A stretch of DNA of 35,163 nucleotides from an uncultured virus (IMG/VR IMGVR_UViG_2061766007_000638) (taxonomy: Duplodnaviria > Heunggongvirae > Uroviricota > Caudoviricetes), in IMG/VR virus record IMGVR_UViG_2061766007_000638. One strand, written 5' to 3'. The position numbers and the translations under genes are program-made. The notes under the pieces are model-generated. The model searched no databases and had not been told where the DNA came from. It saw nothing but the letters and a program-made list of their open reading frames with translations. Positions 13,684-34,788 of this stretch are shown piece by piece. Position 1 is the first letter of the stretch. Each line of letters begins with the position of its first letter.

Positions 13684-16600
13684 TTAAAACACCACCTTTT
13701 TTTGGTATACAAAATCATACAGCCTGCCCTCTATATAATCAGATAATTCATCAAGAGAGCTGNNNNNNNNNNNNNNNNNNNNNNNNNNNNNNNNNNNNNC
13801 TGTTTCTCGTTATAGTTTCGCCTGCGCCGCTGTTTATATCAGCAGGATTAACCGTCTGCAAGCGTGGATCACCGCTGTTAACAGCGATATTTGGATCAAT
13901 ATCAAAGCTTGTCGGAATACTGTTCTGCATTTCTTTTGAAACGCTGTTCATAGTATCGGAAAAGCCCTCGCCTATACCTAAAGCGAGATTTTCACCTATC
14001 ACATCACGAAACAGTGTTGACGGAGAGTGTATGCCGAAAAAGTTCATAATGCTGTCGGTGATAGAAGTACACCAGCCGAAAATATTGTCAATTAGCCAGT
14101 CTTTCGCATTTGTAATGCCCTCCCAGATACCAGATACAAGATTGGAACCGACATCAACCATTTTCCAAAACTGTTCCGAGATTCGGTCTGTGATACCGTT
14201 GACAATTTCGGGCATACGATCTGCAATTTTTGTGACTGTATTTGCAAGATCGCCCACCAAAGACATCAACAACTTTTTACCTAAATCAACGATCACCGGA
14301 AACAGCTCCGTTATTGCTGTAACTATGCCTGCAATTATTTCGGGCATAGCGTCTTTAATTGCTTGAATTATTTCGGGTAAGTTCTCGATCAATGCAAGCA
14401 GAAGCTCAACACCGCAATCAATGATAGTTGAGATGTTGTCAACTAAAGTTGATACAATAGAATCAATAATTCTCGGCAGCTGTAAAACGATCGAATTAAT
14501 TATCTTTGGTAAGTCCTTTATTAGTGCGGTAAGCAATGTTACACCAGTATTAATTATCAATGGTAAATTTGCCGTTACCGCTCCGACAATGCCCGTTATA
14601 ATAGGCGGTATTGCCTGTGTGAGCATTGTTATTATTTGCGGCAAAGCACCGAGCAAAGCATTTACAATGCTGAATATGCCTTGTAACAGTGTTGGCAGCT
14701 GAGATAATACCGCATTTAAAATACTATTAATTAAAATGGGTAAAGCCTGCGTGATAAGCCCTATAAGCTGAGGCAGATATTCAATTATAGATGTAACAAG
14801 ATATACCGTTAAGTTGATTATTTCCGGCAAAAGCTCGGGCAGCAGAAAATCAACAAGATATGTAACAAAATCAACAAGCGTTGGCAGAAGTTCCGGTATC
14901 AGCCCTACCAATGCCGATATAGCTTCACTGATTAAATCGGATAATGACAATACAATAGCAGGCAATTCTACTGCAGCTGCTTCTATAATGCTTTCCACAA
15001 TATCCGGTATATTATCAGTGATCAGCCTTACTCCGTTTTGGAAGAATTTCAAAATTGAGGTAAACAACATTCCCGCTCTGCTTATAAGTATTGCAATAAT
15101 ACCGGGCAATTCGCCTATAATGCCGTCTGCAATTTCTATAACAGCGTCAAGAATGGTTTGTGAGTTATCCAAAAATCCGTTAGCTAAAGCCAATATAATA
15201 CTTTTTGCCGACTGCGCAATACTCGGCGCATTTTCCGCAAGAGAATCGCCAAGCGAGTTAATAAGCGTATTAGCGGCATTAACAACTTGCGGAACATACT
15301 CAACAGCTTTATTTGCAATATCGGCTAAAAAGCTTCCCGCAGCATTCGCCGCTTCTTCAAGTCCTCCGCTTTTAAATGCTTCATTCAACTTACTTAATCC
15401 GTCTGTCGCAAACTGCACACTCTCTCGCAGATCGTCATTAAAGGTTTCGTAAAACGTTACACCCAAAGCCTCTGCGGCAGACTGCATTAGTTTTATATCG
15501 CCTTCAAGGTTATCGATCATTGTTTTAGCCTGCTGTGCCGCCGCTCCTTCTCCCTCGCTTGCGTTTGCAAGTTCTTCTTTAAATAGTTCTACCTTTTCGG
15601 TTGAGGAGGCAGTCATTTTATTGAACGCATTTAAGCCGTTAGTTGTAAAAATAGTATTCTTGTATGCGTTCGCCTGCTCGTCTGTCATAGTCGAAAGTTT
15701 AGCGTTGAGTTCATCTACAACAACATTAAAATCTCTCGTATTTCCTTGACTGTCATACGCAGCAATACCCAACTCTTGTAGAGCCTGTTTTGCGGTATCG
15801 GTGGGAGTATAAAGGTCAGTCATAGCACGATTAAGCTGTGTTGCAGCGTTTTCACCCGTAACATTTTGTTCGGCAAGTCTTAAAAGCGACAATGTCACCC
15901 CATCTGCCGTTTGCCCGTAAGAGTTAGCGTTTGCGGCAGTTCTCGACAATGCCGCACCGAGGTCATTAACATTGGTGTTCGCAAGAGTTGCACCCTTTGC
16001 CATAAGGTCGGTGTATTTCTGTGCGTTCTCCATAGTATCGCCAAAACCTTTGACAGTACCCGTTGTATAGCTTGCCGCACTTTCCAAAGCCAAACTTCCT
16101 GCCGCCGCAAGGTCGAGCACCTTTTCAATACCTGCGATCTGCTCTTCCGTACTAAGTCCCGACATAGCGAGGATATTTAAACCCTGCGCCGCCTCGGTAG
16201 CTGAAAACTGCGTTGTCGCTCCCATTTCTTTCGCTTTTTCGGTAAGGTCTGAAATTTCGTCGGTGGTTTTGCCCATGGTTGCGGCGATTTGAGATATAGA
16301 AGATTCAAAACTTTTGCCGACATCCGTTGCTGCTGTCATAGCTTTAACGGCAAGTTTAGCCATTTCCTCTTGAACCGATACCAAAGCCTTGCCTATATCT
16401 AATGCCGCCGTTCCTATGTCCTGTGCAGCGGTCGTTACAGCACTGCCTACTTGTGCGGCAACTGCTTTTAGCTCTTTAAAGGTAGCTGCAGCCTTGTCGT
16501 TTTGATCTGCAAGCTTGCTTTCTTCCTGCGTTAAATCTTCCGTACTGCTTAAAGTCTGAGTGTTAGCTTGATTGACGTTTCTCTGCTCCGCTTCCAGCTT

Positions 16601-16936
16601 TTTCAAACTCCCCTCGGTGCTTATGATCTCTCTTTGAAACGCTCTGTAAGCGTCTGCACCTATCTCGCCGCTTTTGTACTTTTCCTCAACCTGTGCCTGT
16701 GCGCTTTTTAGCTGCTGTAATTTATCCGAGGTGTTTTTGACCTGCTCAGATAAAATCTGCTGTTTCTGTGCAAGCAAGGTTGTATTTGTCGGGTCGAATT
16801 TTAAAGCGTTGTTGACCTGTCTTAACTCTGAATTGAGTATTTTTGACGATTTGTCTACCTCGTTTAACGCTTTTTGAAGTCCGACGGTATTACCGCCAAT
16901 TTCAACAGTAATTCCCTTTATTGCTTTTAATGCCAT
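13684..16936 (-). CDS. Tail tape measure protein, phage A (TP901-type core); gap 13763-13799
   Basis: IKGITVEIGG start, TQFSATEAAQGL core, amphipathic repeats, FFGIHSPS; likely true C-terminus SSLDELSDYIEGRLYDFVYQKKVVF* ends at 13684. Confidence 0.93.
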
Positions 16937-16942
16937 TATTTC

Positions 16943-16992
16943 ACCTCTTTTCGGGTATAAAACAGCACCTTGCTTTTATTGCAAAGTGCTGT
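16943..16992 (-). terminator. Terminator-like hairpin plus TATACCCGAAAAGAGGTG element before TMP
   Basis: ACAGCACTTTGC-AATAAAA-GCAAGGTGCTGT then TTTATACCCGAAAAGAGGTG. Confidence 0.6.
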
Positions 16993-17054
16993 AAATTACG
17001 ATAGTTTTATAAATAAATATAAAAAAACTTTCAAAAAAGTGGGGCGGTCTTTTT

Positions 17055-17318
17055 TTACTCCCACTCTGCAAGCTGCTGTTTGAATTTGTCGTATTTATCT
17101 TTTGGTATAAGTCCGTTTTTATAATCCTCATCAACCTTAGGTTCAATCGTTTTCAGTGTTTTGTATTTCTCATCGTCGCTGTATGCACTGTCGCTCTTTG
17201 TCATTGATTTATTCTTGACGTGAATAAAATCAATAATCGTCCCTATGTTCCATTCGTCAATTTCGCAGGCGGCAAGTCCTGCATTTTTACAGCAGAGTAC
17301 AAACTCCGCAGCGGTCAT
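17055..17318 (-). CDS. Tail assembly chaperone, T segment (gpGT by -1 frameshift)
   Basis: In the -1 frame of the upstream slippery site; lies between gpG and TMP. Confidence 0.85.
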   Translation of the reverse strand: MTAAEFVLCCKNAGLAACEIDEWNIGTIIDFIHVKNKSMTKSDSAYSDDEKYKTLKTIEPKVDEDYKNGLIPKDKYDKFKQQLAEWE

Positions 17319-17665
17319 TAGTTCGCCGCTTGATTTGCCGCCCTTCCTGCGTTTTTTGTGAGTGTTTTAACAGCCTTTGAAACAAGCTCCGACAATTCCC
17401 CCCACACCTCAAAAATATCTATCTCGTCAAAGCTGTCATACCACGTCTGAGGGTCGGGTATAGTCGGGTCTGCCGTCTTTGCAAGTACCCATGTCATATT
17501 TTCTATAACAGAGAAATTTATTTTTGACGGGTCTTTCTTTGCCGTGTTAAGTGAAGCGAGATCGACAAAGAATTCGCTGCCGAATTGGTTGCGGTATCGC
17601 ATAAGAGTACCGCCCGTACACTTAAAATTAATAGCTCTGCCGTCAATGGTGAGTGTTTTTTCCAT
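17318..17665 (-). CDS. Tail assembly chaperone gpG
   Basis: MEKTLTIDG...RYRNQF..EFF.D, WVLAKTAD..IP.P..W..SF; follows major tail gene. Confidence 0.9.
   Translation of the reverse strand: MEKTLTIDGRAINFKCTGGTLMRYRNQFGSEFFVDLASLNTAKKDPSKINFSVIENMTWVLAKTADPTIPDPQTWYDSFDEIDIFEVWGELSELVSKAVKTLTKNAGRAANQAAN
17351..17357 (-). promoter_or_regulatory. -1 programmed ribosomal frameshift site A AAA AAC
   Basis: Correct phase; -1 frame reads KKRRKGGKSSGELMTAAEF into the T segment; conserved at 26013-26019 and 26563-26569. Confidence 0.88.
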
Positions 17666-17698
17666 AACGTTTCTCCTTTTAAGGTTTTGTGTTCGTAG

Positions 17699-18247
17699 TT
17701 ACAGCGCAGGCTCGGGAATTGCTCCAAGCTCTTCTGTACCCGATATTTTCAAACGAACCGCCTTGTCCTTCAGTCTCGGTTTTGCGTTGATCTTGTATGT
17801 GACAAACTGTTCCTCCCAATTGCCCTGCTCTGCCGTTTTGCCTGTGATGTCGGGTCTTGATGTACAAACGCAGTTATAGAATATCTCTGTCTTGCCTACG
17901 TCGCTTGTATCGTTGTCGGAAAGAATGAGAGCAAATCTCGGCTTTTCCGTATCTTTAGCGACTTCAAGAGTACCGTTTGAACGTATCTCAAAACCAAGCC
18001 ACTGCTCGGCAATAGTGTCAATGATATCAATGAGAGTCAGTTCTATCTCATAGCCGCCGTTTACCTCGGCTTCATAGACCGTTTGCGAGTTTGCGTCTAT
18101 CGTTTTTACAGTGCCGGATGCAGTCGCTTTGTACTCTCTGCCGCCTGCCTCTGCGGCCGCGAAATATATGGGAGTACCGACTGTATAAGTATCTGCGTCT
18201 TGTGCAGTTATCGGCGCAAAACCGACATTTACGAGTTTTGTTTTCAT
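17699..18247 (-). CDS. Major tail protein (phi13-like family)
   Basis: NGGYEIEL.L, PRFAL, FYNC...RP; synteny. Confidence 0.9.
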   Translation of the reverse strand: MKTKLVNVGFAPITAQDADTYTVGTPIYFAAAEAGGREYKATASGTVKTIDANSQTVYEAEVNGGYEIELTLIDIIDTIAEQWLGFEIRSNGTLEVAKDTEKPRFALILSDNDTSDVGKTEIFYNCVCTSRPDITGKTAEQGNWEEQFVTYKINAKPRLKDKAVRLKISGTEELGAIPEPAL

Positions 18248-18262
18248 AGGATTTTGTCCCCC

Positions 18263-18583
18263 TTACAGTTCAAAAGTATAGTATGTTATATATAGCTGTT
18301 CCTCCGAAATGTAGGAACGGTTTTTCTCATATGTAGTAAAATTATCAAGATAATTTTCAACAATTACCTCGTTCTCATCCGTCTGCCCTGCCTTTGTGTA
18401 AAGCTCCAATACGATAGCCGTTTTGCATAGAACCGCCCTTGAATCTGCCGCTGTAAACTCAAAATCGTTGTCGGTGTAGATCAGATACGGCGCTGTTTGT
18501 TCCTCCAAGAATACGGTATGCGCCGCAGGAAACGGAAGAGAATCAAGCGACTGCGCAAAGCTTTCTTTGTCAAACTTTATCAT
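18263..18583 (-). CDS. Tail completion/terminator protein
   Basis: PYLIY...AD...LELYT...YISEEQLY..YY; synteny. Confidence 0.8.
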   Translation of the reverse strand: MIKFDKESFAQSLDSLPFPAAHTVFLEEQTAPYLIYTDNDFEFTAADSRAVLCKTAIVLELYTKAGQTDENEVIVENYLDNFTTYEKNRSYISEEQLYITYYTFEL

Positions 18584-18966
18584 TTATGCCCCGCCTTTTG
18601 TATATCCTTTTCGACCTTTGCGGTAAATTCCTTAATGATCATTTCCTCCGCTGGTGCTATGTGCGGTATCGCCTTCACCCTTTTAGTACCGCCTTTTATT
18701 GCGTGCCCGTATTCAAGCAAATGTGTGAGCTGATAGTCCGTTGCATTGTGTACAACAAATTGACTGCCTGCTTGATCTTTGTAAACCTGCCGAACTTTCC
18801 AGCCTTTTTTATAATCGCCTGTTCTTTCGGGAGAAGTTTCTTCAAGCGTTCGCCTGAGCTTATTGGCGCAGCTTCTTGCGGACTTATTCACACGATCTGC
18901 AAGCTCGTTTGTATATGTTTGTAATTCGCTCATAATTGCCTGTGAGAGGTCTATATCACTGCCCAT
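18580..18966 (-). CDS. HK97 gp10-like tail component
   Basis: SPERTGDYKKGW, YQLTHLLEYGH, PHIAPAEE. Confidence 0.9.
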   Translation of the reverse strand: MGSDIDLSQAIMSELQTYTNELADRVNKSARSCANKLRRTLEETSPERTGDYKKGWKVRQVYKDQAGSQFVVHNATDYQLTHLLEYGHAIKGGTKRVKAIPHIAPAEEMIIKEFTAKVEKDIQKAGHK

Positions 18967-18969
18967 ATA

Positions 18970-19281
18970 CTAACTCCCCTCCGTTCGTTTCTCGACCGTA
19001 ATTTCAAGCTGCAAGCCGTTTCTGTACGTCCTTACAACGTGATAGAGGACACCGCTGTATTTAACAATGTCCTCGTTATCATAGTCGTAATGATCGGCTA
19101 ATACAAACTTAAAAGCGGGCTTTATACCGCTTTGTGCAGCAGTATAAAATTCGCTCTGCGTTACAGACTTGACTTCTGCGAATACCTCGCGAAAAACGTA
19201 TTCTTTATTCTGATTTTTGTATTTGTCGACAACAATTTGCTGTTTGCCGAGTTCAATCACTTCATTATACATCTTCGTCAC
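18970..19281 (-). CDS. Head closure protein (SPP1 gp16-like)
   Basis: VFAEVKSVTQSEFYTAAQSGIKP, Y.VVRTY. Confidence 0.88.
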   Translation of the reverse strand: MTKMYNEVIELGKQQIVVDKYKNQNKEYVFREVFAEVKSVTQSEFYTAAQSGIKPAFKFVLADHYDYDNEDIVKYSGVLYHVVRTYRNGLQLEITVEKRTEGS

Positions 19282-19558
19282 TTTCCTTATATCCGCTTGA
19301 CATACTCAGTACATCCCGCAGACTTTCATAACCTTTTTTGTACTGATCGCCTTTGCTTAAAAAGTCATACTGTGCCATGCAATACAGCTTTACGGCAGAC
19401 AGCAAAAGTGAATTACTTTCTACATCTGTATCATTATCGGGAACAGCAATACCGAGCCGCCGCATATCGTCAAGACAGGCAGAGATATGCTGCCGTATAT
19501 CTTCATCGAGTTTATCATGCGATATTCGTAAAGCTGTTTTTATATCGTTTACAAGCAT
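19265..19558 (-). CDS. Head-tail connector (HK97 gp6/SPP1 gp15-like)
   Basis: IKTALRISH..LD..I...I.A...D, AVKLYC; follows capsid gene. Confidence 0.88.
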   Translation of the reverse strand: MLVNDIKTALRISHDKLDEDIRQHISACLDDMRRLGIAVPDNDTDVESNSLLLSAVKLYCMAQYDFLSKGDQYKKGYESLRDVLSMSSGYKESDEDV

Positions 19559-19579
19559 ACCTCTTTGCCCCCTGTTTTA

Positions 19580-20755
19580 TTACTGCGCCGCTTTCTGAAC
19601 GAGCGTTACAAGGCTGTGTTTGTCAACGACCTTACCGTCAACGAGCATTACAGCCTTTGTGATCTTATCGTCCGTATCATTGTCTTCGTATGTTTTTACA
19701 GTTATGTTGAGGTTTGTATTAAGCGTATAATCGGCAGGGCGGAAAATAAACGCAATAACAGTGTCTGCTGTCTGCGCCGTATAGCTCGCCATATAATCAT
19801 CAAGCGTTTTTACGGCTCTGCCGAGAAGCGTTCTTTCGGGTTTGCCGCCAATGCCGTAATTTACTCTTGCGACAGGCTGCCCGTTATCATCGACCATGCC
19901 CACAAACTTCATAAACGTCTTTTTTGTCATAAAGTAATACGCACCGTTTTCGTATGCAGCAGGGAGAGCCGCTTCCATATCAACAAGCGTTTGATAATCT
20001 ACAGGCATACCGTTTGCAAGCTCTATCACCTGTCCTGATACGGGAGTTTCGGCAAGTATGCCTTTAGGCTTGCCTGTGCCGTTGCCGCTTACAATAGCAG
20101 CGGTGAGCGCCCTGTTCATTGCACGTGTTACATCTCTTATAAACTTGCTTTCAAATGCCGAAAGTGACATTGTTTCAACTTCAAGTGTCATAGCAACGGC
20201 AACTCTGAGCTTATGATAGGCAAACGTAATAGTACCGTTTACACCGCTTTTCTGTACTGTGCTGCCTGCGCCCTCTGCGACCCAGCTTGCGGTAGGAACT
20301 ACATCGCTTGTCGGTATAGACACACCGCCCTTGTAAGACGTGCGTGTGATGAGGGTGAGAAGCTCGCACTCGTTTTCAAGCTCTTCGACAATTCTGTTAA
20401 GTGTTGTGGTAGGAATAACGGGTGTAACATCGCCTGTTTCGGTAACAGCGTTTACATACTGCGCAGGAATGGGAGTACCCTTTGTAACATGGTTCATAAA
20501 AGCTTTGCGGTACTCGATAGAATCATAATCTGCGGCACTTGCGTTACCTGAATAAAATGCTCCCGCTTTGCTGTCTGATGTGCCATTCAGCGCATTAAGA
20601 TTCGCCTGTGCAATGCTTTGTGCTTCAAAGTCTTCATCAAGCTTTCTGATCTCGTTCTCTTTAGCCGTATAGCCTTTCATATCGCCCTTGTCAATAAGGC
20701 TTTGAGCCTCGTTTATAAGAGCGTTTCTTTTGTTCAAATATGTTTCTCTTGTCAT
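19580..20755 (-). CDS. Major capsid protein, HK97 family (phage A)
   Basis: N-terminal coiled-coil delta domain, EYRKAF, VIPTT, WVAEG, G.G.GKPKGIL, DNGQP...LLGR.V. Confidence 0.95.
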   Translation of the reverse strand: MTRETYLNKRNALINEAQSLIDKGDMKGYTAKENEIRKLDEDFEAQSIAQANLNALNGTSDSKAGAFYSGNASAADYDSIEYRKAFMNHVTKGTPIPAQYVNAVTETGDVTPVIPTTTLNRIVEELENECELLTLITRTSYKGGVSIPTSDVVPTASWVAEGAGSTVQKSGVNGTITFAYHKLRVAVAMTLEVETMSLSAFESKFIRDVTRAMNRALTAAIVSGNGTGKPKGILAETPVSGQVIELANGMPVDYQTLVDMEAALPAAYENGAYYFMTKKTFMKFVGMVDDNGQPVARVNYGIGGKPERTLLGRAVKTLDDYMASYTAQTADTVIAFIFRPADYTLNTNLNITVKTYEDNDTDDKITKAVMLVDGKVVDKHSLVTLVQKAAQ

Positions 20756-21396
20756 ACTTTAACCTCACTTTTTATTTTTTCTAATCTGATTTGTACCGCC
20801 GCTTTTGCTTTGGCATTTTCAAACTGTTTTCTCTGCTCGTCTGTTGCTATTGTGCAATGGGAGTTTATCAGCAACTCCCGCCCTGCAATTTTGTCACACA
20901 AACCTATGTCAACCGCTTCTTGTGCAGTAAACCAAGTTTCTTTATCCATAAGCGGCAAAAAGTCGCTTTCGGATTTCCCCGATTTATCTATATACGCTTG
21001 ACACATTGCCCTGTCAGCTTTTCGAAGTGTTTCACTCTCGTGCTTAAAGTCTTTGAAATCACCTTGCGCAACGGTTGACACATTATGTATCATCACCATT
21101 GATGCTGCGCTTATATCATTTTCGGCAGCGCACATTATAACGCTCGCCGCACTCGCCGCAAGCCCTACAACGTGAATTTTGACTTTATCTTTGTGCTTTT
21201 GTATTGCAGAATAAATTTCTGCTGCCGCAAAAATATCACCGCCGCCCGAATTGATATATATATCAAGCTGTTCTTCTCTTTCTAAGCTTTCTGCAACATC
21301 TTTCGGACAGGTGCTTTCTATGCCAAAAAATTCATATAGCTGTTTATCTTCATTTGGAATAATAGTACCTTTAATGTTAATGTCCGTTATTCTCAC
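20752..21396 (-). CDS. ClpP-type prohead maturation protease (phage A)
   Basis: YINSGGGD, GLAASAAS (catalytic Ser), MIHN (His), ETWFTAQEAV..GLCD; start codon uncertain. Confidence 0.93.
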   Translation of the reverse strand: MRITDINIKGTIIPNEDKQLYEFFGIESTCPKDVAESLEREEQLDIYINSGGGDIFAAAEIYSAIQKHKDKVKIHVVGLAASAASVIMCAAENDISAASMVMIHNVSTVAQGDFKDFKHESETLRKADRAMCQAYIDKSGKSESDFLPLMDKETWFTAQEAVDIGLCDKIAGRELLINSHCTIATDEQRKQFENAKAKAAVQIRLEKIKSEVKV

Positions 21397-22552
21397 CTCC
21401 TGTTGTAGGCTGCGTGTCTAAGCGTCTTATCGGTTCGTCACCGCCTTCAACGGGTGCAAGGTTGAATATCTCTCTCCACTCGTTGGGAGTTAACGCTCCT
21501 CTGTCTACCATCGATACAAAGTTAAGCTTTGTATTAATAGTTGCGCAGGCAAGATTAGACGCTTCAAAAATTATTTTGTTGCCGTAGCTTCTCTTTTTCG
21601 GAGTAAACAGTTTTCTTGTGTACTCGCCTGCAAAATCCAAGGCGATAGGCTCAATTGAGTTTTCATAAAAGCTGTTCCATTCGTCCTCGGTATAGCTGCC
21701 TTGAACAATTTTCTCGTTAACTCCGAAAAGGCTGTATATCCTGCTTTTTACGCTTTCAAGAATCTCAAAATTAGGTATATAATCGTTGCTTTTGACCTGC
21801 GTTACATCTACCCTCGGGTCTGTTGCCGCAACACCGCCCGCAGTGCTTTCGGTGCTTGTATATGCTTCCGAGAAATCCTGTGCGATCTGTTTCAGGTCAT
21901 CTTTCCTCACCGCACCCGTTGCCTTTAGCAGCCATCTGATGACGTTACTGTTTTTGACGGTTTTTACGATACCATCATCGATAGTATTGCTGATCTTCAA
22001 AAGCGGTGCTAAGGTAGGCATTAACGAATTGCCGAAAATATCATTGTCATAGTAATTTGTTCGCAGGTGCAAAACATCGTCATAATTGAACGTGTAAACT
22101 TTGCCGTTGCCGAGAGTGAATTTCAAGTATAAGCTGCTGCCTCTGTATTCGGCTTCTACACCGAGTGCGGGCAGTGGGAACAGTTCGACAGGCATTCCGT
22201 TTTTATCTCTTGTAATGCTTGCAAATGCGTTGCCGTTAAGTATCAGCTGCGCCGTCATTTTCTCTTGAAACTTTTGCGCAGACATAAGCGGGTTGGGATT
22301 TTCAAGCAGCACTTTGATATAAGGCTCGGGATTTACCTTCAAATCGTTTTGCCCCGTGTAAATGTGTTTGCCGACAAGCTTGCCTACTGCTTTTACGTAT
22401 GGAGCAAGACACGCTCTGACAATATCGCTGTCGTATATTTTTCCGTTCCAAATGCAAGCACCGTTTCCCTTTTCTGTTACAAGCTGATATTTAGCGAGGG
22501 TTTCGGACTTCTGATTTTTGAATAGGCGTTTAAAAATATTCGTGTTCATCAC
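21377..22552 (-). CDS. Portal protein, HK97 family (phage A)
   Basis: PNPLMS, LILNGNAF, VLHLR, LTPNEWR..FNLAPVEGGD. Confidence 0.95.
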   Translation of the reverse strand: MMNTNIFKRLFKNQKSETLAKYQLVTEKGNGACIWNGKIYDSDIVRACLAPYVKAVGKLVGKHIYTGQNDLKVNPEPYIKVLLENPNPLMSAQKFQEKMTAQLILNGNAFASITRDKNGMPVELFPLPALGVEAEYRGSSLYLKFTLGNGKVYTFNYDDVLHLRTNYYDNDIFGNSLMPTLAPLLKISNTIDDGIVKTVKNSNVIRWLLKATGAVRKDDLKQIAQDFSEAYTSTESTAGGVAATDPRVDVTQVKSNDYIPNFEILESVKSRIYSLFGVNEKIVQGSYTEDEWNSFYENSIEPIALDFAGEYTRKLFTPKKRSYGNKIIFEASNLACATINTKLNFVSMVDRGALTPNEWREIFNLAPVEGGDEPIRRLDTQPTTGGENNGH

Positions 22553-22576
22553 CTGCCTTTTTTAGATTATTCCCCG

Positions 22577-22837
22577 TTAAGTTGCAGGTGCGCTTGTCAC
22601 TGTAATTTCAATGGTATTGCCGTTTGAAAGTGTCGCAGCACCGCCTATAACTGCGCCCTCCGTTGTGTACAGAGTTATCGCCGTAACGCTTGCGCCGGTG
22701 TCACCCTTTGCGCCTGTAATATCGAAATTATCTTCAATACTTTCAAGCACTGCCGAAATAGTTTTTCCGTTTGGTTCTGTCTGTTCTGTACTGCACTTTT
22801 TGCCGAGAGCCTTTAATGCGTTTACCGTTCTGCCCAT
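22577..22837 (-). CDS. Small protein with short Gly-X-Y stretch (possible head decoration/fibre)
   Basis: GAGGTG SD before MGRTV; GAKGDTGAS then a beta-rich C-terminus. Confidence 0.65.
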   Translation of the reverse strand: MGRTVNALKALGKKCSTEQTEPNGKTISAVLESIEDNFDITGAKGDTGASVTAITLYTTEGAVIGGAATLSNGNTIEITVTSAPAT

Positions 22838-22899
22838 TTTATCACCTCTTTTTGTTTTCGTTTGTTTTCGGGTATAAGAAAAGCCCCTCAAACGGGTGC

Positions 22900-23223
22900 T
22901 TAGTCTGCTTTTTTATTATCAACTTCTTGTTTTCGCTTTTTGTATTCTTCTTCGTCCATGTCATCGAGCATTGAAGTTATAAGCTCGTTGCGGTCACTTT
23001 CAAGCCATCGTTTGAACCATGGCTCCATTGCTTCTACAGCCTTGACGACATCCGAAGGTCTTACATCCAATTCATCTCGAAATGTCCATTCGTCTATATT
23101 TGCAAAAGCGCACATTACCTGCTCCACACACCAATCGTATCCGCGAATAACCTCTTTATCGGCTTGAATCAGATATTTTTCGTTATAATATTCGTCTGTT
23201 CTGCAATCGGGAAAATAGCTCAT
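22900..23223 (-). CDS. Acidic hypothetical protein (107 aa) in the terL-portal slot
   Basis: GGAGGT SD before MSYFPD; flanked by hairpins. Confidence 0.8.
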   Translation of the reverse strand: MSYFPDCRTDEYYNEKYLIQADKEVIRGYDWCVEQVMCAFANIDEWTFRDELDVRPSDVVKAVEAMEPWFKRWLESDRNELITSMLDDMDEEEYKKRKQEVDNKKAD

Positions 23224-23272
23224 TGGTTTACCTCCAAAATGGTACAAGAATACCGCTCTCGTTTGAGGGCGG

Positions 23273-23755
23273 TTAAATCAACACTTGATATTTTTCTTTC
23301 TTATCGCACCACACAACATAAGCATCCAAAAGAGCCGCTGTGCCGTCGATCCTTTGTGTACGCTTATCCGATTTACATGGCTGAATGTTGCCATTTGTAT
23401 CACTCTTAACATCTGTGTTGAGTAAGCACCACAAATCGACCGGATTATCATCATATACTATTTTCTTGCTTTGCAGGTCGGCTTTGAGGTCTTTCATCGG
23501 ACCGGAAAGAGTTATAACGCCCTGCCTTACGGGTATCATGGTCAGTTTTCCAAACTCGTCTAAAAACAGTCTTAACAGATCATCCGATATGTGCCAAGGG
23601 TCATACCCTATATACATCGGGTAAATATCTTCATTATCTCTTAATTCGCAAAACCAGTCAAAAAACACTCTCTTATCAACTTTCTTCCCCGGGTATGCTC
23701 TCATCAAGCCTTGTTCAATCCATTGCTTATACGGAACGTGGTCACGGCTGTCACG
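23273..23755 (-). CDS. terL: Terminase large subunit (Terminase_1 type), C-terminal fragment, phage A
   Basis: IGYDPW, VRQG..TLS.PMK, RIDGTAALLDA; cut by gap. Confidence 0.92.
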   Translation of the reverse strand, partial: RDSRDHVPYKQWIEQGLMRAYPGKKVDKRVFFDWFCELRDNEDIYPMYIGYDPWHISDDLLRLFLDEFGKLTMIPVRQGVITLSGPMKDLKADLQSKKIVYDDNPVDLWCLLNTDVKSDTNGNIQPCKSDKRTQRIDGTAALLDAYVVWCDKKEKYQVLI

Positions 23756-23765
23756 NNNNNNNNNN

Positions 23766-24014
23766 ACCTATCGCTTCGGTTTGTTGTTCAGTGTTCAAAC
23801 CTGCCATTGCAAGAATATTTAAACCGTCAGCCGCTTGAGATGCTGAAAATTGAGTTGTTGAACCAAGTTCTTTTGCTTTGTCCGTAAGTGTTGTTATTTC
23901 ATCGGTAGATTTACCCATAGTTGCCGCAAGCTGAGAAATTGAGCTTTCAAACTCCATACCGACATTAGTCGCCGCTTTTCCTGCTGCAAGCACACCTGTT
24001 GCAGTGGCAGCCAT
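23766..24014 (-). CDS. Tape measure protein internal fragment (sister phage)
   Basis: FESSISQLAATMGK...TQFSASQAADGLNILAMAG, homologous to phage A TMP. Confidence 0.88.
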
Positions 24015-24847
24015 NNNNNNNNNNNNNNNNNNNNNNNNNNNNNNNNNNNNNNNNNNNNNNNNNNNNNNNNNNNNNNNNNNNNNNNNNNNNNNNNNNNNNN
24101 NNNNNNNNNNNNNNNNNNNNNNNNNNNNNNNNNNNNNNNNNNNNNNNNNNNNNNNNNNNNNNNNNNNNNNNNNNNNNNNNNNNNNNNNNNNNNNNNNNNN
24201 NNNNNNNNNNNNNNNNNNNNNNNNNNNNNNNNNNNNNNNNNNNNNNNNNNNNNNNNNNNNNNNNNNNNNNNNNNNNNNNNNNNNNNNNNNNNNNNNNNNN
24301 NNNNNNNNNNNNNNNNNNNNNNNNNNNNNNNNNNNNNNNNNNNNNNNNNNNNNNNNNNNNNNNNNNNNNNNNNNNNNNNNNNNNNNNNNNNNNNNNNNNN
24401 NNNNNNNNNNNNNNNNNNNNNNNNNNNNNNNNNNNNNNNNNNNNNNNNNNNNNNNNNNNNNNNNNNNNNNNNNNNNNNNNNNNNNNNNNNNNNNNNNNNN
24501 NNNNNNNNNNNNNNNNNNNNNNNNNNNNNNNNNNNNNNNNNNNNNNNNNNNNNNNNNNNNNNNNNNNNNNNNNNNNNNNNNNNNNNNNNNNNNNNNNNNN
24601 NNNNNNNNNNNNNNNNNNNNNNNNNNNNNNNNNNNNNNNNNNNNNNNNNNNNNNNNNNNNNNNNNNNNNNNNNNNNNNNNNNNNNNNNNNNNNNNNNNNN
24701 NNNNNNNNNNNNNNNNNNNNNNNNNNNNNNNNNNNNNNNNNNNNNNNNNNNNNNNNNNNNNNNNNNNNNNNNNNNNNNNNNNNNNNNNNNNNNNNNNNNN
24801 NNNNNNNNNNNNNNNNNNNNNNNNNNNNNNNNNNNNNNNNNNNNNNN

Positions 24848-24973
24848 TGCTGTCCCCAGCGCCGATAAGTCGGCGAAAAATTCAGAATTAAATTGGTTGC
24901 GGTATCTCATAAGCGTACCGCCTGTATGCTTAAATCTTATCTGTTTTCCGTCAATAGTCAAAGTCTTTTCCAT
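24848..24973 (-). CDS. Tail assembly chaperone gpG, N-terminal fragment (variant)
   Basis: Same peptide as the N-terminus of 26557..26851. Confidence 0.85.
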
Positions 24974-24988
24974 AAGTTCAGTTCTCCT

Positions 24989-25078
24989 TTAAGGTGTAGG
25001 CTCGGGAACGGCTGTAAGCTCCGCTGTGCCCGACTTTGAAAGCCTGATGTTTTTATTGTCAAGCCTTGGTCTTGCTGT
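24989..25078 (-). CDS. Major tail protein, C-terminal fragment (third variant)
   Basis: TARPRLDNKNIRLSKSGTAELTAVPEPTP*. Confidence 0.85.
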   Translation of the reverse strand, partial: TARPRLDNKNIRLSKSGTAELTAVPEPTP

Positions 25079-25088
25079 NNNNNNNNNN

Positions 25089-25712
25089 CGCAGAACCGAC
25101 TGCTGCCGCTGAGCTTTTGAGTAATGTTAGAGTTTTTTCAAAGCTTACGGTACTGTCTTTGGTTTTGTCGCTTTGTTTTTCTAAGTTTTTTTCCTCTGTT
25201 ACAAGTTCTTCCGTGCTTTCAGCGGTATTCCCAGCGGCTTTATTAAGTTCATTTTGATTTTCAGCTAAGTCTTCGGTAGTATCATTCAACTTGTTTTGTT
25301 CTTTTGCAAGGTCTTCGGTGCTGTTTGCTGTTTCTTCCGTTGTACCGTTTAACTTATCCTGTTCGGATTTCAAGCTTGACAGTTTCCCCTCTGTTGACAT
25401 TACCTCACGTTGAAAAGCTCTGTAAGCATCAGCACCTATGTCACCGCTTTTATACTGCTGTTCAACCTGTGATTGTACATCTTTCAAGGTTTGCAATTTA
25501 TTGGAAGTTGCCTTTACCTGTTCCGCAAGAATTTCTTGTTTCTGTGCAAGAAGCACGGTATTTGTCGGATCGAGCTTTAAAGCACTTTCAACCTGTCTTA
25601 ATTCAGAATTAAGTTGATTTGATTTTTTATTAACCTCTGCAAGAGCCTTTTGTAATCCGACAGTATCTCCGCCGATTTCAACCGTAATTCCCTTAATATT
25701 ATTTTTCGCCAC
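25089..25712 (-). CDS. Tape measure protein, N-terminal part (sister phage)
   Basis: IKGITVEIGGDT...; homologous to the N-terminus at 16936; cut by gap. Confidence 0.9.
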
Positions 25713-25716
25713 TCTC

Positions 25717-26201
25717 TCACCTCCACTCGCTCAGTTGCTGTTTAAACTTGTCGTACTTTTCCTTAGATATCAAGCCCTTTTTGAATCTCTCATCAATCTC
25801 AGGCTCTAGCTCTTTAAGCTGCTTATATCGTTGTTCATCGCTGTATCGGCTCTCATTTTTCATCATGGATTTGTTCTTGATGTGAATAAAATCAATGATA
25901 GTTCCGATGTTCCACTCGTCTATTTCCTCGGCGGTAAGTCCTGCATTTTTGCAGCAAAGGACGAACTCTACTGCTGTCATAGGTTCGTCCTTTTCCTTAC
26001 CGCCTTTTATACGTTTTTTTGAAGCGTTTTCAATGCTTTTCCCGTAAGCTCGGAAAGCTCGCTCCATACTTCAAGAATGTCTATATCCTCAAAGCTGTCG
26101 TACCACGTTTGCGGATCCGGAACGCTGTCATCTGCTGTTTTTGCAAAAGCCCATATCATGTTTTCGATAACGGCAAAATTCACCTTTGTCGGATCGCTTT
26201 G
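25717..26201 (-). CDS. Tail chaperone gpG C-terminus (stop 26007) plus frameshifted T segment (variant)
   Basis: ...KALKTLQKNV* with A AAA AAC at 26019-26013; -1 frame KKRIKGGKEKDEPMTAVEF. Confidence 0.85.
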
Positions 26202-26211
26202 NNNNNNNNNN

Positions 26212-26262
26212 AGTATCTCCGCCGATTTCTACTGTAATTCCCTTGATTGCTTTTTTTGCCAT
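26212..26262 (-). CDS. Tape measure protein start (further variant), cut by gap
   Basis: MAKKAIKGITVEIGGDT. Confidence 0.85.
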
Positions 26263-26266
26263 GCTT

Positions 26267-26569
26267 TCACCCCCATTCGCTTAACTGCTGCTTGAATCTG
26301 TCGTATTTTGCTTTTGGAATTAAGCCTTTTTTATACTTTACATCAATTTCAGGTTCTAACGCTTTGAGCTGCTTATATCGTTGTTCATCGCTATATAAGC
26401 TTTTATTTTTTATCATGGACTTATTTCTTATTTGAACAAAATCAATGATAGTCCCAATATTCCAGTTTTCAATCTCCTCGGCGGTAAGTCCTGCCTTCTT
26501 GCACAAAAGGACGAACTCTACAGCTGTCATAGGTTCGTCCTTTCCCTTACCGCCTTTTATACGTTTTTT
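26267..26569 (-). CDS. Tail chaperone T segment (phage B)
   Basis: -1 frame from slippery site 26569-26563; homologous to 17055..17318. Confidence 0.85.
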   Translation of the reverse strand, partial: KKRIKGGKGKDEPMTAVEFVLLCKKAGLTAEEIENWNIGTIIDFVQIRNKSMIKNKSLYSDEQRYKQLKALEPEIDVKYKKGLIPKAKYDRFKQQLSEWG

Positions 26570-26851
26570 TGAAGCGTTTTCAATGCTTTTGCCGTAAGCT
26601 CGGAAAGCTCGCTCCATACTTCAAGAATGTCTATATCCTCANNNNNNNNNNNNNNNNNNNNNNNNNNNNNNNNNNNNNNNNNNNNNNNNNNNNNNNNNNN
26701 NNNNNNNNNNNNNNNNNNNNNNNNNCGCTGTCCCCAGCGCCGATAAGTCAGCGAAAAATTCAGAATTAAATTGATTGCGGTATCTCATAAGCGTGCCGCC
26801 TGTATGCTTAAATCTTATCTGTTTTCCGTCAATAGTCAAAGTCTTTTCCAT
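26557..26851 (-). CDS. Tail assembly chaperone gpG (phage B), internal gap
   Basis: Homologous to 17318..17665. Confidence 0.85.
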
Positions 26852-26863
26852 TTCAGTTCTCCT

Positions 26864-27421
26864 TTAAGGTGTAGGCTCGGGAACGGCTGCAAGCTCTGCC
26901 GTGCCGCTTTTTACAAATCGTATATAACCGTCTTTTGGTCTTGGTGTTGCAGAAATCTTGTAAACGGGAAATTGGTCATCCCAGTTGCCTTTCTCTTCCG
27001 TTTTGCCTGCAATATCGGGTCTTGCCGTGCAAACACAGTTATAGAAAATTTCCGTCTTGCCTGTTGAGCTTGTATCGTTATCAGAAAGAATCAATGCAAA
27101 TCTTGGCTTTTCAGTATCCTTTGCCTTTTCAAGTGTGCCGTTTGAATAGCTGTCAAAGTCAAGCCAATCCTTTTCTATATCGTCAATGATATCAATGAGC
27201 GTCAGCTCAATCTCGTAGCCGCCATTTATTTCAGCTTGGTAAACAGCCTGAGAATTAGCATAAATTTCTTTTACTGTACCAACAGGAGTAGCTTTATACT
27301 CCCTGCCTCCTGCTTCGGCAGCCGCAAAATACTTGATTTCGCCGTATGTAGTTGTCGTATCAGTCTGTGCGGTAATAGGCGCATATCCTACTCTTACAAG
27401 TCCTGTTTTCATAAAAAACAT
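26864..27421 (-). CDS. Major tail protein (phage B)
   Basis: Homologous to 17699..18247; likely start at MKTGL. Confidence 0.9.
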   Translation of the reverse strand: MFFMKTGLVRVGYAPITAQTDTTTTYGEIKYFAAAEAGGREYKATPVGTVKEIYANSQAVYQAEINGGYEIELTLIDIIDDIEKDWLDFDSYSNGTLEKAKDTEKPRFALILSDNDTSSTGKTEIFYNCVCTARPDIAGKTEEKGNWDDQFPVYKISATPRPKDGYIRFVKSGTAELAAVPEPTP

Positions 27422-27426
27422 CTCCT

Positions 27427-27747
27427 TTATAATTCAAAAGTATAATATGTTATATACAATTGTTCCTCTTTTATATACGATTTCGATTTCTCGTAAGTCG
27501 TAAAATCATTAAGAAATATTTCTGTAATCTCCTCAAATTCGTCTGTTTGGCTGCCTTTTGTGTACAATTCAAGCACAATCACCGTTTTCTGCAAAACTGT
27601 CTTTGAATTCGCCGTTACAAACTCAAATTCATTATCGGTATAAATTAGATATGGCGCTGTCTGCTCTTCTAAAAACACTTCATGAGCAACTGGAAAAGGG
27701 AGCGTTTTTAACGCTTTTACAAATTTTACTTTATCAAATTTTATCAT
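27427..27747 (-). CDS. Tail completion/terminator protein (phage B)
   Basis: Homologous to 18263..18583. Confidence 0.8.
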   Translation of the reverse strand: MIKFDKVKFVKALKTLPFPVAHEVFLEEQTAPYLIYTDNEFEFVTANSKTVLQKTVIVLELYTKGSQTDEFEEITEIFLNDFTTYEKSKSYIKEEQLYITYYTFEL

Positions 27748-27750
27748 CGC

Positions 27751-28134
27751 TTAGCCCCCTCGGATTGCTTTTTCAACTTCGGCTAAGAACTCATTCACAA
27801 TTTTTTCTTCCGCCGGCGCTATGTGCGGAATTGGTTTTACTCTCCGAGTGCCGCCTTTTATAGCGTGTCCGAATTCCAAAAGATGAGTGAGTTGATAGTC
27901 GGTCGCATTATGCACAACATACTGACTCAGTGTGTGTGAATTATAAACCTGTTTTACTTTCCAGCCTTTTTTATAATCGCCTGTCTTTTTGGGGCTGTTT
28001 TCCTGCAATTCTTTTTTTAGCTTGTTTGCATACTCTTTTGATGAAGTGTTTACTTTCTCAACAACATCGTTTGAATAGTTTTGCAGCTCTTTCATTATGG
28101 CTGCCCCAATGTCAATATCACTCATTCGCAACAC
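27751..28134 (-). CDS. HK97 gp10-like protein (phage B)
   Basis: Homologous to 18580..18966; likely start at MSDID. Confidence 0.9.
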   Translation of the reverse strand: MLRMSDIDIGAAIMKELQNYSNDVVEKVNTSSKEYANKLKKELQENSPKKTGDYKKGWKVKQVYNSHTLSQYVVHNATDYQLTHLLEFGHAIKGGTRRVKPIPHIAPAEEKIVNEFLAEVEKAIRGG

Positions 28135-28438
28135 CTTCTATCTTTTTTTCAACAGTCAATTCAAGCTGCAATCCGTTTCTGTACGTTCTTATGATATGAT
28201 AAAGGACACCGCCGTATAAAACAGTGTCCTCTTCGTCATAGTCGTAATAATCAGCTAAAATCATTTTAAAGACAGGCTTAAATCCACTCTGCGCAGCTGT
28301 GTAATATTCGGATTGAGATACTGATTTAACCTCGGCAAAAACTTCTCTAAAGACGTATTCTTTACTTTGGTTTCCGTAATCATCCTCAACGACAGCAGGC
28401 TTTCCCAGCTCAATAACATCATTATACACCGCTGTCAC
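28118..28438 (-). CDS. Head closure protein (phage B)
   Basis: Homologous to 18970..19281. Confidence 0.88.
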   Translation of the reverse strand: MTAVYNDVIELGKPAVVEDDYGNQSKEYVFREVFAEVKSVSQSEYYTAAQSGFKPVFKMILADYYDYDEEDTVLYGGVLYHIIRTYRNGLQLELTVEKKIEGVANE

Positions 28439-28715
28439 TCTCCCTATAATTACTGCTTAAACTAAGGGTATCCCGTAAGCTTTCATATCCCTTTTTATAC
28501 TGCTCGCCTTTGTTCAAAAAATCATACTGTGCCATGCAATATATTTTTACTGCGGAAAACAACAGTGCATTATTTACAACTTCTTCTATATCATCCGGGA
28601 CAGCAATTCCTAATCTTTTCATATCGTCAAGACAAGCCGATATATGCTGACTAATATCATCATCAAGCTTGTCGTGTGATATTCTCAATGTAGTTTTTAC
28701 GTCATCAATCAGCAT
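28422..28715 (-). CDS. Head-tail connector (phage B)
   Basis: Homologous to 19265..19558. Confidence 0.88.
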   Translation of the reverse strand: MLIDDVKTTLRISHDKLDDDISQHISACLDDMKRLGIAVPDDIEEVVNNALLFSAVKIYCMAQYDFLNKGEQYKKGYESLRDTLSLSSNYRESDSGV

Positions 28716-28734
28716 ATCAGATCACCTCCGAAAA

Positions 28735-29931
28735 TCAGGCTGTTACAGTAAGAGTAACAAGGCTGTTTTTATCAATAACTTTACCGTCTGTAATCATCAC
28801 TGCTTTGCGGATAAGGTCATCGGTGTCATTATCCTCGTAAACTTTCGCCGTAATCTCGTAGTTTGTGTTGAGAATATAATCGGCAAAATTGAAGATAAAC
28901 GCAACGATTGTATTCGCCGTAACCGTTGGTGTGTAATTAGCGATATAATTATCAAGGATTACAACATCACGTCCCAAAATTGAACGCTCCGGCTTGCCGG
29001 AAATACCGTAGTTAATGCGTGCAATAGGCTGCCCGTTATCGTCAACAATTCCATAAAACGCCATAAAAGTTTTCTTTGTCATCGCATAAACAGCGCCGCT
29101 TTCATACGCAGACGGCAGCGCTGCCTCCATTGCAGCAAGCGTATTATAAGAAATTGCCGTACCGCTTGCAATAGTGAGCGCCTGACCTGTGACAGGAGTT
29201 TCCGCCAGAATTCCTTTTGGTCTGCCCGAACCCGAACCGTCAATAATAGCCTGTTCAAGAGCTTTTACCATAGCGTAAGAAACATCGTTGACAAACTTTG
29301 TTTCAAATGCGCTCAAAGACATTACAGACACTTCAAGGGTCATCGAAACGGCAACTTTAAGCTTATGATATGTAAAGGTAATCGTGCCGTTTACACCGCT
29401 CTTTTGAATGGTTACGCCTGCGCCCTCATTTACCCATGTGGCAGTAGGCTTGACATTGCTTGTAGGAATAGTCAAGCCGCCTTTGTAGTTTGTCCTTGTT
29501 ACAAGGTTAAGAACAGTGCCGATATTTTCCATTTTCTCAACAATACGATTGAGAACGGTAGTAGGAATTACAGGGCTTACATCTCCGGTTGCAGTTGTCA
29601 GGTTGTTAAACGCAGTTCTGAAACTATCGGGAATTGCCGAACGTGTCACAACGTAATTCATAAACGCTTTTCTGTATTCCAGCCCCGAAAACATATCAGC
29701 GTCTTCACCCTTTGCCGCAAAAAAGTCCGCTGTTTCGCTTCTGCCCTTATCGCTCAAAATTTTAAGCTGTGCCTGAGCTTTTGCAGCGTTTTCAAAATCT
29801 GCGTCATGCTTCTCGATCTCTGCCTTTTTTGCTTCAAATGCTTTTAATTCTGCATTATCCGCAAGCTGCTGAGCTTCTTTTAAAAGTTCGTTTCTCTTTG
29901 TGATATACTCTTCTCTTGTCATGTTATACAC
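28735..29931 (-). CDS. Major capsid protein, HK97 family (phage B)
   Basis: Homologous to 19580..20755. Confidence 0.95.
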   Translation of the reverse strand: MYNMTREEYITKRNELLKEAQQLADNAELKAFEAKKAEIEKHDADFENAAKAQAQLKILSDKGRSETADFFAAKGEDADMFSGLEYRKAFMNYVVTRSAIPDSFRTAFNNLTTATGDVSPVIPTTVLNRIVEKMENIGTVLNLVTRTNYKGGLTIPTSNVKPTATWVNEGAGVTIQKSGVNGTITFTYHKLKVAVSMTLEVSVMSLSAFETKFVNDVSYAMVKALEQAIIDGSGSGRPKGILAETPVTGQALTIASGTAISYNTLAAMEAALPSAYESGAVYAMTKKTFMAFYGIVDDNGQPIARINYGISGKPERSILGRDVVILDNYIANYTPTVTANTIVAFIFNFADYILNTNYEITAKVYEDNDTDDLIRKAVMITDGKVIDKNSLVTLTVTA

Positions 29932-30550: not shown

Positions 30551-30624
30551 NNNNNNNNNNNNNNNNNNNNNNNNNNNNNNNNNNNNNNNNNNNNNNNNNN
30601 NNNNNNNNNNNNNNNNNNNNNNNN

Positions 30625-32476: not shown

Positions 32477-32529
32477 TTAATCACCTCCAAAATGGTAAAA
32501 GAATGCCGCCGAGCCTTGCGGCGGGACGA

Positions 32530-33248: not shown

Positions 33249-33259
33249 ANNNNNNNNNN

Positions 33260-34761: not shown

Positions 34762-34788
34762 AATGCTGCCTCCTTTCGGCTTTTTTAT

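Follow-up and report, generated by a model that had tools for sequence, protein, structure and literature searches.

The junction between the large terminase (terL) and portal genes of a phage lineage found in the window – the whole stretch of DNA analysed here, 35,163 bases in length – is a slot of variable occupancy. In most close relatives terL and portal are neighbours; in the few lineages in which the slot is filled the cargo differs, and in two of these, A and B, inserted genes are preceded by a short module of about 45 nt comprising (in order) a terminator-like hairpin, a U-rich tract, a six-base box and a strong ribosome site. The modules are not confined to this junction: they recur at other junctions and in phages with unrelated head genes, and in one such phage the same borders enclose different genes. 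We consider it reasonably probable that breaks in the late operon take up accessory genes headed by shared modules, and that the modules act as homology patches through which these genes are exchanged.

Anatomy and occupancy of the terL–portal slot

The window is a scaffold of 17 pieces joined by 16 N runs, 11 of which are ten bases long. Nearly all of its long ORFs are carried by the minus strand, and it contains parts of three phages:

13800-23755, piece A, from the tape-measure gene to the 3' part of terL
about 25089-35163, the B pieces, from a relative of A (A and B portals 73% identical)
1539-7255, a third phage unrelated to A and B, with a Terminase_3 terL, an SPP1-type portal and a MuF gene

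Neighbourhood across N runs carries no information in such a scaffold. That the window consists of pieces joined by N runs and holds duplicated near-identical genes, and that N runs bound a fragment at 303-1154, could suggest that the cassette-slot pattern is an artefact of mixed-strain assembly or scaffolding. Yet slot A is contiguous inside one piece (13800-23755) and slot B inside 30625-33249; moreover, slot A was found again in a separate public contig (L001, 97.8% identity) and in contigs of four other runs. An artefact is thus extremely improbable and is contradicted for slots A and B; it still limits the placing of the fragment.

Modules were scored with a covariance model, R1, built from an alignment (A1) of 21 instances from the window and related loci. 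The features of slot A (22553-23272) and its surroundings are:

23273-23707, minus strand, C-terminal part of terL, piece A (PF20441, E 2.4e-12; phrog_9, E 2.1e-30)
23231-23273, minus strand, A-left module (R1 37.5 bits, E 3.4e-9; fold)
22900-23223, minus strand, cargo 1, an acidic 107-aa protein (pI 4.4)
22844-22900, minus strand, A-mid module (R1 38.3 bits over 22861-22900)
22577-22837, minus strand, cargo 2, an 86-aa protein (phrog_34916, E 1.6e-7)
21377-22552, minus strand, portal gene, piece A (PF04860, E 1.6e-55)

The left and right flank strings quoted in the preliminary description of this DNA were all found where it had placed them, on the minus strand. It took the slot to enclose a single gene: the flanks exist, but the slot holds two ORFs (of 107 and 86 aa), so that what had been named the right flank (our A-mid) sits between them, and the true right edge, beside the portal start, is without a module. 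A-left, in which hairpin, U-rich tract, box and ribosome site follow one another in order, begins 2 nt past the terL stop and ends 8 nt ahead of the start codon at 23223 (terL itself is cut by the N run at 23756). A-mid has an extra 10-nt repeat separating box from ribosome site, which is missing from L001 and from the contigs of runs X9 and X12.

The 107-aa protein is the product that had been called an acidic orphan. Pfam, PHROGs, NCBIfam and PADLOC contain nothing that matches it credibly, the sole row being a sub-threshold match to Pfam UCH (E 0.0052; 16.9 bits against a cut-off of 23.9), and none of its 32 homologue clusters is named. The 86-aa protein combines a short collagen-like stretch with a C-terminal part rich in beta structure. 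DNA 90% identical to its gene is present in L047-type phages (see below); a homologue (47% over 43 aa, E 5e-7) fills this slot in L181-183, phages that share about 56% portal identity with B, and another lies upstream of HNH-terS-terL in a B-like record (G004). Its role may be that of an accessory in packaging or in the head, and not one in anti-defence.

Slot B is arranged as follows:

32530-33243, minus strand, C-terminal part of terL, piece B (PF20441, E 4e-17; phrog_9, E 2.2e-46)
32484-32524, minus strand, B-left module (R1 27.2 bits, E 2.6e-6)
31719-32476, minus strand, cargo, a beta-class N6/N4 DNA methyltransferase (PF01555, E 4.1e-26)
31722-31766, minus strand, B-right module (R1 50.2 bits)
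30535-31722, minus strand, portal gene, piece B (PF04860, E 1.4e-55 for 30625-31722; includes the N run 30551-30624)

In this assembly a frameshift in an eight-G run near 32305 divides the methyltransferase gene into ORFs 32207-32476 and 31719-32225. The second ORF scores 92.7 bits against PF01555 (cut-off 26.7), and both halves, the N-terminal one included, match PADLOC MTase_II (E 3.6e-40 and 3.2e-21). The final codons of the methyltransferase frame contain B-right, whose ribosome site is the one used by the portal start. Both B-right and the right flank of the fragment are inside cargo reading frames, which continue across the hairpin. B-right and B-left are the top terminator-like sites of the scan, B-right being the best.

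Relatives of the portal were gathered from viral, genome and metagenome collections, and the terL–portal distance was determined by tblastn. The slot is empty in eight distinct close relatives (portal at least 64% identical: L002, L061, L064, L003, L052, L005/L063, L054 and L065), with terL and portal separated by 5-22 nt. Three close lineages are filled, each with different cargo: A (also L001), B, and L004/L062, in which the slot (334 nt) contains a short ORF and is without a module. At greater distance, L019/L057 (59% identity) carry about 630 nt with a regulator-like gene on the opposite strand, and L056 (48% identity) carries 377 nt. Among further relatives that have both genes (29-57% identical), terL and portal are adjacent in 36 of 41 and separated by inserts in the other five. 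In a neighbour-joining tree of portals (which has no support values) A, B and L004 fall on separate branches among empty relatives, and in three of the four other runs that hold slot A a relative's contigs join terL directly to portal. A scan of the viral collection with the B portal as query gave no relative above 57% identity; the nearest cultured portals (52% identical) are those of Caldibacillus phage CBP1 and of C. difficile phages.

The variable slot proposed in the preliminary description is borne out by these comparisons: close relatives are mostly empty, and the occupied ones differ in cargo and stand on separate branches. Empty relatives together with scattered filled branches indicate that the slot is real and was filled several times, the empty state looking ancestral. 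The terL–portal slot is one of a few permissive breaks in the late operon. Modules do not mark filled slots in general, being absent from L004, L019/L057, L056, L180-183 and L214, all of which have inserts.

A module family at several junctions

The pattern formed by the box, five free bases and the ribosome site matches the window five times, always on the minus strand, against an expectation of 0.00 from 100 dinucleotide-preserving shuffles. R1, run unfiltered on both strands of all 35,163 bases, returned 12 rows at E<=1, of which six have E <= 2.6e-6:

1131-1147, 16943-16959, 23230-23246, 31721-31737 and 32483-32499, minus strand, pattern matches
31722-31766, 22861-22900, 23231-23273, 16944-16990, 300-344 and 32484-32524, minus strand, strong R1 matches
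1132-1166, minus strand, seventh R1 match, weak because an N run cuts the module

The remaining five rows are weak (E 0.097-0.69), two of them arising from these hairpins read on the opposite strand. The R1 seed contained four of the strong matches and, for a fifth, its near-identical L001 copy; 300-344 was outside the seed. A motif and covariance search of this kind had been proposed earlier; it recovers both flanks of slot B, A-left and A-mid of slot A, and the fragment ends.

Orientation and position are consistent. All six strong matches in the window, and 46 of the 47 matches in the loci, are on the gene strand; among 37 tabulated matches a start codon follows 5-10 nt after the module in 20, and 0-24 nt after it in 31. 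In 14 of these matches an upstream stop codon precedes the hairpin by 2-28 nt, and in five a reading frame passes through the whole module. The U-tract, box and ribosome site are better conserved in A1 than the hairpin, and the box is kept across very different hairpins. Hairpin positions show both-sided changes at four of seven pairs, and 88% of cells are paired compared to 36-56% in slid controls; however, the seeds of R1 and A1 were chosen with a hairpin filter, so this pairing is partly by construction.

A terminator-like hairpin is predicted in all six folded modules, and a helix of 4-5 pairs between box and ribosome site in five of them; fold z-scores are ordinary (-0.5 to -1.2) for three of the six. 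The U-tracts are interrupted, which – together with the five cases of translation through the hairpin – leads us to expect weaker termination. A second candidate helix, between the 3' arm of the hairpin and the box, was rejected as unsupported: 76% of cells pair, but there is no both-sided change, and shuffles equal the value. None of 54 sigma-70-like promoter matches in 13800-33700 lies at a module, as expected if the cargo is promoterless, which is how it was first described. At gathering scores Rfam recognizes only a tRNA in the window and no family at the modules, and region 22400-23400 gives no Rfam match at E<=1.

Modules are sparse. The phage records G006-G010 (n=5, 29-44 kb) have 1-4 R1 matches each at E<=0.001, and at E<=0.01 G004 has three (one of them strong) and G005 two. 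Three host-like MAGs (1.8-2.9 Mb) gave 0-2 weak matches; here only 150 of 1,300-2,300 candidates were scored per genome, so that the rarity of modules in hosts is not firm. R1 found no match in 32 more distant relatives, and in cultured phages the module gives rows at chance level only (E 2-5). A description of the modules was not found in the literature, in searches that were not aimed at intergenic repeats of rumen phages.

The preliminary description treated these boundaries as defining the terL–portal slot, a view that does not hold, because the same modules occur at other junctions and in unrelated phages. One of them is in piece A itself:

16944-16990, minus strand, tape-measure module (R1 37.2 bits), directly upstream of the tape-measure start at 16936

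A module before the tape-measure gene is also found in L003, L001 and L064, and the chaperone–tape-measure junction is as variable as that between terL and portal: it is direct and without a module in both B variants of the window and in L065, consists of a single 60-nt module in L003, measures 91-122 nt with a module in A, L001 and L064, and holds an insert of 837 nt in L054. Single modules without cargo thus occur, that of L003 being an example. Exact-pattern scans of the viral collection also revealed modules in phages with other, unrelated head modules, where they follow the MuF/minor-head gene or the portal, or precede the terminase genes. In L108, L121 and L047 module-headed genes form arrays.

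The most informative comparison is with L047, which like L046 has unrelated head genes (portal phrog_104, minor head phrog_2494). L047 carries A-left (55 nt, 92.7% identity) in an unrelated context. Where A has its 107-aa gene, L047 has an 81-aa phrog_774 gene and a 61-aa ORF; A-mid plus the 86-aa gene come next (320 nt, 90%). The first cargoes of A and L047 are unrelated (BLASTP E 0.58). Judged from these alignments, A versus L047 shows most clearly how identical borders enclose different genes, and conserved short boundaries with swapped content, as originally suggested, do exist. Matches between modules of different junctions are also close: the 3' part of B-left is 96.6% identical over 29 nt to a module of L047, and B-right is 91.7% identical over 48 nt to the tape-measure module of L003. 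The genes around B-right, and around the fragment end that also resembles this L003 module (see below), are unrelated or about 70% identical.

In other communities contigs diverge from A-left on both sides into unlike sequence, and the depth of run X9 contigs over 23242-23302 reaches 598, compared to about 10-70 beside it. A joint between A-left and A-mid was not seen among contigs of other runs, an uninformative result given that contigs lose rare forms.

The fragment at 303-1154 and the phrog_21498 family

The fragment forms a scaffold piece of its own, both ends of which are inside modules:

303-1154, minus strand, fragment
303-1124, minus strand, complete gene of the phrog_21498 family, 274 aa before the N run (phrog_21498, E 1.1e-84)
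1132-1154 and 300-344, minus strand, module parts (R1 28.5 bits at 300-344)
1165-1449, truncated phrog_21498 copy, following the MuF gene of the third phage of the window

The last 40 nt of the fragment match the tape-measure module of L003 at 97.5% identity and the first 33 nt match A-left at 91%, whereas the gene body and its nearest homologues share only about 70%. The family is common (72 loci). Closer homologues have a module in front and often another behind, with quite different hairpins that belong to the same module family. In 12 annotated loci, seven copies follow the MuF/minor head gene, two follow a phrog_12 portal, one precedes the terminase genes and the others are elsewhere; none of the 12 lies between terL and portal. 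The fragment was assigned to the terL–portal slot on account of its flanks. It may belong there; likeness of flanking sequences cannot prove the placement.

Alignment A4 shows that the conserved last codons of phrog_21498 genes build the hairpin shared by the fragment and B-right. The unrelated methyltransferase of B carries exactly this phrog_21498 tail, from the hairpin foot onward, which points to a gene of the fragment's family having once been upstream of B-right or of its donor; on this ground the fragment may belong to the slot after all.

The fragment gene had been described as a Dam-like methyltransferase. By sequence this could not be upheld: no family reaches E<=0.01 in Pfam, NCBIfam or PADLOC, and sequence comparison with PDB chains gave no relevant chain. 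A D-N-P-P-F motif is invariant in 28 phrog_21498 homologues. A structure model (mean pLDDT 81) gave no Foldseek match in the PDB at E<=0.001; VIA-align returned Z scores of 7.5-5.7, a middling range, mostly with rRNA and DNA N6-adenine methyltransferases. E. coli Dam (Z 6.3, rmsd 3.4, 100 aligned) and T4 Dam (Z 6.2) likewise fall in the middling range. The model and the motif suggest that phrog_21498 is plausibly an amino-methyltransferase, its likeness to Dam being putative. The earlier statement that the cargoes include methyltransferases is nonetheless sound, since two of them are, or resemble, DNA methyltransferases (B by PF01555, the fragment by D-N-P-P-F and the model).

Explanations and related systems

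The observations could be put together as follows. The window holds pieces of two related HK97-type siphophages of rumen or gut Clostridia, a lineage in which terL and portal normally abut, with the junction tolerating inserted accessory genes. In A and B the inserted genes are each headed by a module of about 45 nt, in which a GC-rich hairpin and U-rich tract have the appearance of a weak intrinsic terminator, and a short C-rich box is predicted to pair with a strong extended ribosome site placed 5-10 nt before the start codon. Members of the same module family head accessory genes of phages with quite different head genes; such near-identical copies across otherwise unrelated DNA would provide homology patches, between which phage or host recombination could swap, add or delete genes, a deletion being able to leave one module behind. 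At the RNA level, the module probably reduces read-through and determines how the passenger is translated within the late transcript. Among the passengers are two putative kinds of orphan DNA methyltransferase, whose action would mark the progeny DNA ahead of its packaging; from this we infer a possible anti-restriction role. Against this account, modules are dispensable for filling the slot (as witnessed by module-free inserts and by the right edge of slot A), and the contig data yielded neither a recombination intermediate nor a recent exchange event; the interrupted U-tracts and the translation through the hairpin noted above also count against it.

The module could alternatively be maintained mainly as an RNA device. 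The ribosome that ends the upstream gene would open the hairpin and the small helix of box and ribosome site, thereby coupling translation and tuning read-through, and exchange would be a by-product. Pairing of the box with the ribosome site beside the hairpin in five of six folds fits this reading, as do upstream stops 2-28 nt before the hairpin (14 of 37), frames running through the module (five) and placement on the gene strand (six of six strong window matches, 46 of 47 in the loci). Against it, the small helices have only 4-5 pairs and three of six z-scores are ordinary; we think it rather unlikely as the main explanation. It is unlikely, too, that the flanks are ordinary intrinsic terminators and strong ribosome sites that evolved independently and play no part in gene movement. 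Hairpin and U-tract do score as terminator-like, the purine-rich stretch is compatible with an extended ribosome site, and the same slot is filled without modules elsewhere; but independent origin does not predict that unconstrained loops and spacers should be near-identical in unrelated contexts (97.5% over 40 nt; 92.7% over 55 nt), that modules should be as sparse as 1-4 per phage record, or that the box between U-tract and ribosome site should be conserved despite different hairpins.

Modules might also be sites of dedicated cassette mobility in gut and rumen Clostridia phages, a phage counterpart of integron attC sites or of hairpin-guided transposition, with an integron-like structure-specific recombinase, or a hairpin-guided single-strand transposase, cutting at the hairpin foot or the box. 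Promoterless passengers (methyltransferases and small virion-associated proteins) would then move between permissive late-operon breaks of unrelated phages, and the site itself would consist of a hairpin free in sequence and a short, conserved box. The sharp 5' limit of homology at the hairpin foot (in three contexts, and in A versus L047) would be explained, and so would the arrays in L108, L121 and L047 and lone modules such as that at the L003 tape-measure junction. However, recombination between short homologous patches also leaves sharp limits; none of the loci examined has a recombinase linked to its modules, comparison with empty sites reveals neither target duplication nor a fixed cut site, and right joints fall within the ribosome site or upstream of it. 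Dedicated mobility is a very unlikely explanation. Recombination between modules serving as homology patches is the most probable reading.

The movement of small accessory genes among the mosaic, uncultured phages of gut and rumen has mostly been inferred from whole-genome comparisons. R1 provides a concrete, searchable module by which the edges of passengers can be recognized in phages whose head genes are unrelated; the data also contribute one clear instance in which different genes stand between identical borders, as well as a chimeric gene end. If recombination does occur at modules, the PeSL idea (below) would extend to small temperate-type siphophages of Clostridia and to late operons, and the modules would offer a handle on metagenomic accessory genes, including orphan methyltransferases and phrog_21498 as a probable new amino-methyltransferase family. 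As they stand, the results are an incremental addition to a known principle: they fit a known route of phage evolution in which genes are swapped through recombination at regulatory sequences held in common.

The closest known kinds are the PeSL cassettes of T4 and the ESAS of mycobacteriophages. PeSLs (promoter-early stem-loops) of T4-type phages are composite regulatory motifs, short and conserved, that include a stem-loop and border non-essential genes; at a given locus one phage may have a lone motif and its relative a gene flanked by motifs, and homologous recombination inside the motif has been proposed as the means of exchange (Arbiol et al. 2010, PMC2839356; Comeau et al. 2014, PMC4122927). 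Further marks of PeSL cassettes are a stable stem-loop that acts as terminator or attenuator – in our modules such a hairpin is predicted – and mini-circles that arise by recombination between motifs. The corresponding contrast – a flanked gene in one phage, a single motif or other content in another – was found here in A versus L047 and in L003 versus the B pieces of the window. PeSLs differ in having a strong sigma-70-like early promoter, where our modules have no promoter match, and in their place: early hyperplastic regions of large Gram-negative myophages, compared to the late head/tail operon of what are probably small Clostridia siphophages. In our modules the conserved part is U-tract, box and ribosome site.

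The ESAS/SAS of Cluster K mycobacteriophages, going by the relevant portions of Pope et al. 2011 (PMC3203893), are conserved asymmetric repeats with a ribosome site a few bases before start codons, often preceded by an imperfect inverted repeat whose spacer is variable; they have one orientation, are associated with different gene families and are rare in host genomes. The likeness to the module consensus (A1) is one of layout only, the SAS having another consensus, of 13 bases, and inverted repeats of 17 bases. According to those portions, SAS occur in the non-structural right arm at about 93 sites in six genomes, compared to 1-4 modules per genome here, and a role in gene exchange is not proposed there.

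The slot had also been called moron-type, a term for elements reportedly described by Juhala et al. in 2000 and Hendrix et al. in 2000. A classical moron has its own promoter upstream and a terminator after the gene. What agrees is the presence of an extra gene, with a terminator-like hairpin, between genes that are adjacent in relatives (eight close and 36 of 41 further ones). What does not agree is an own promoter and a downstream terminator: here the hairpin precedes the gene, there is no promoter match, and in slot A no hairpin follows the last gene.

Integron cassettes are promoterless genes with attC sites – imperfect palindromes of variable sequence with a short conserved core – and are found in arrays. 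The modules and their cargo resemble them in the promoterless genes, the variable palindrome with a short conserved core and the arrays, but neither an integrase nor an attC core was seen, the hairpins here are much shorter (6-12 pairs), and the palindrome lies 5' of the gene together with a ribosome site. The comparison of integron cassettes with PeSLs is itself made in PMC2839356.

Scaffold composition

Near-identical copies of genes are found as neighbours across runs of N in the window:
23894-24014 and 26726-26851, near-identical gene copies
25717-26067 and 26267-26617, near-identical gene copies
34396-34761 and 34785-35093, near-identical gene copies

Because these copies lie side by side across the N runs, they suggest that the scaffold was built by joining variants of a single phage from different strains, as opposed to representing a true tandem arrangement.

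Methyltransferase and methyltransferase-like genes

The frame of the methyltransferase gene in slot B, the terL-portal insert of phage piece B (31719-32476), is broken at a run of eight G near 32305; a second run, of six G, is located further on. The break could be a sequencing error in the homopolymer, or it could reflect an on/off switch that works by strand slippage.

The gene at 303-1124 belongs to phrog_21498, a family annotated as 'unknown function', in which D-N-P-P-F is invariant (this gene plus related loci L094-L165). No sequence-family match was found in Pfam, NCBIfam or PADLOC; the predicted fold of the protein resembles a methyltransferase. The C-terminal part carries a five-residue charged repeat in a run of variable length, and in five loci the frame continues through the hairpin 3' of the gene.

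Collagen-like proteins and variable sites

Small proteins combining collagen-like triplets with a common C-terminal domain repeatedly adjoin packaging genes, twice inside the terL-portal slot itself:
window 22577-22837, small collagen-like protein
L181 (related locus) 2305-2553, small collagen-like protein
L180 (related locus) 2313-2710, small collagen-like protein
L170 (locus) 3839-4165, small collagen-like protein

In the middle module of slot A, between its two ORFs, an extra 10-nt repeat (22851) separates the box from the ribosome site; L001 and contigs from two other sequencing runs do not have it, indicating an indel polymorphism. The junction between tail chaperone and tape-measure genes (window 16937-17058; L003, L064, L054, L065) is a second variable site, at which the genes are joined directly or are separated by a single module, two hairpins or, in L054, an 837-nt insert carrying a gene on the opposite strand.

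Gene order in other phages

The third phage, of SPP1/MuF type, has a tRNA gene upstream of its small terminase gene:
window 6237-6309, minus strand, tRNA gene (69.8 bits)

In phages with a phrog_104 portal, the portal, minor head gene and cassettes are followed by a terminase-like gene, which is an unusual gene order:
L047 3802-5220, terminase-like gene, 473 aa (phrog_17688/phrog_9)
L108 4150-5568, terminase-like gene, 473 aa (phrog_17688/phrog_9)
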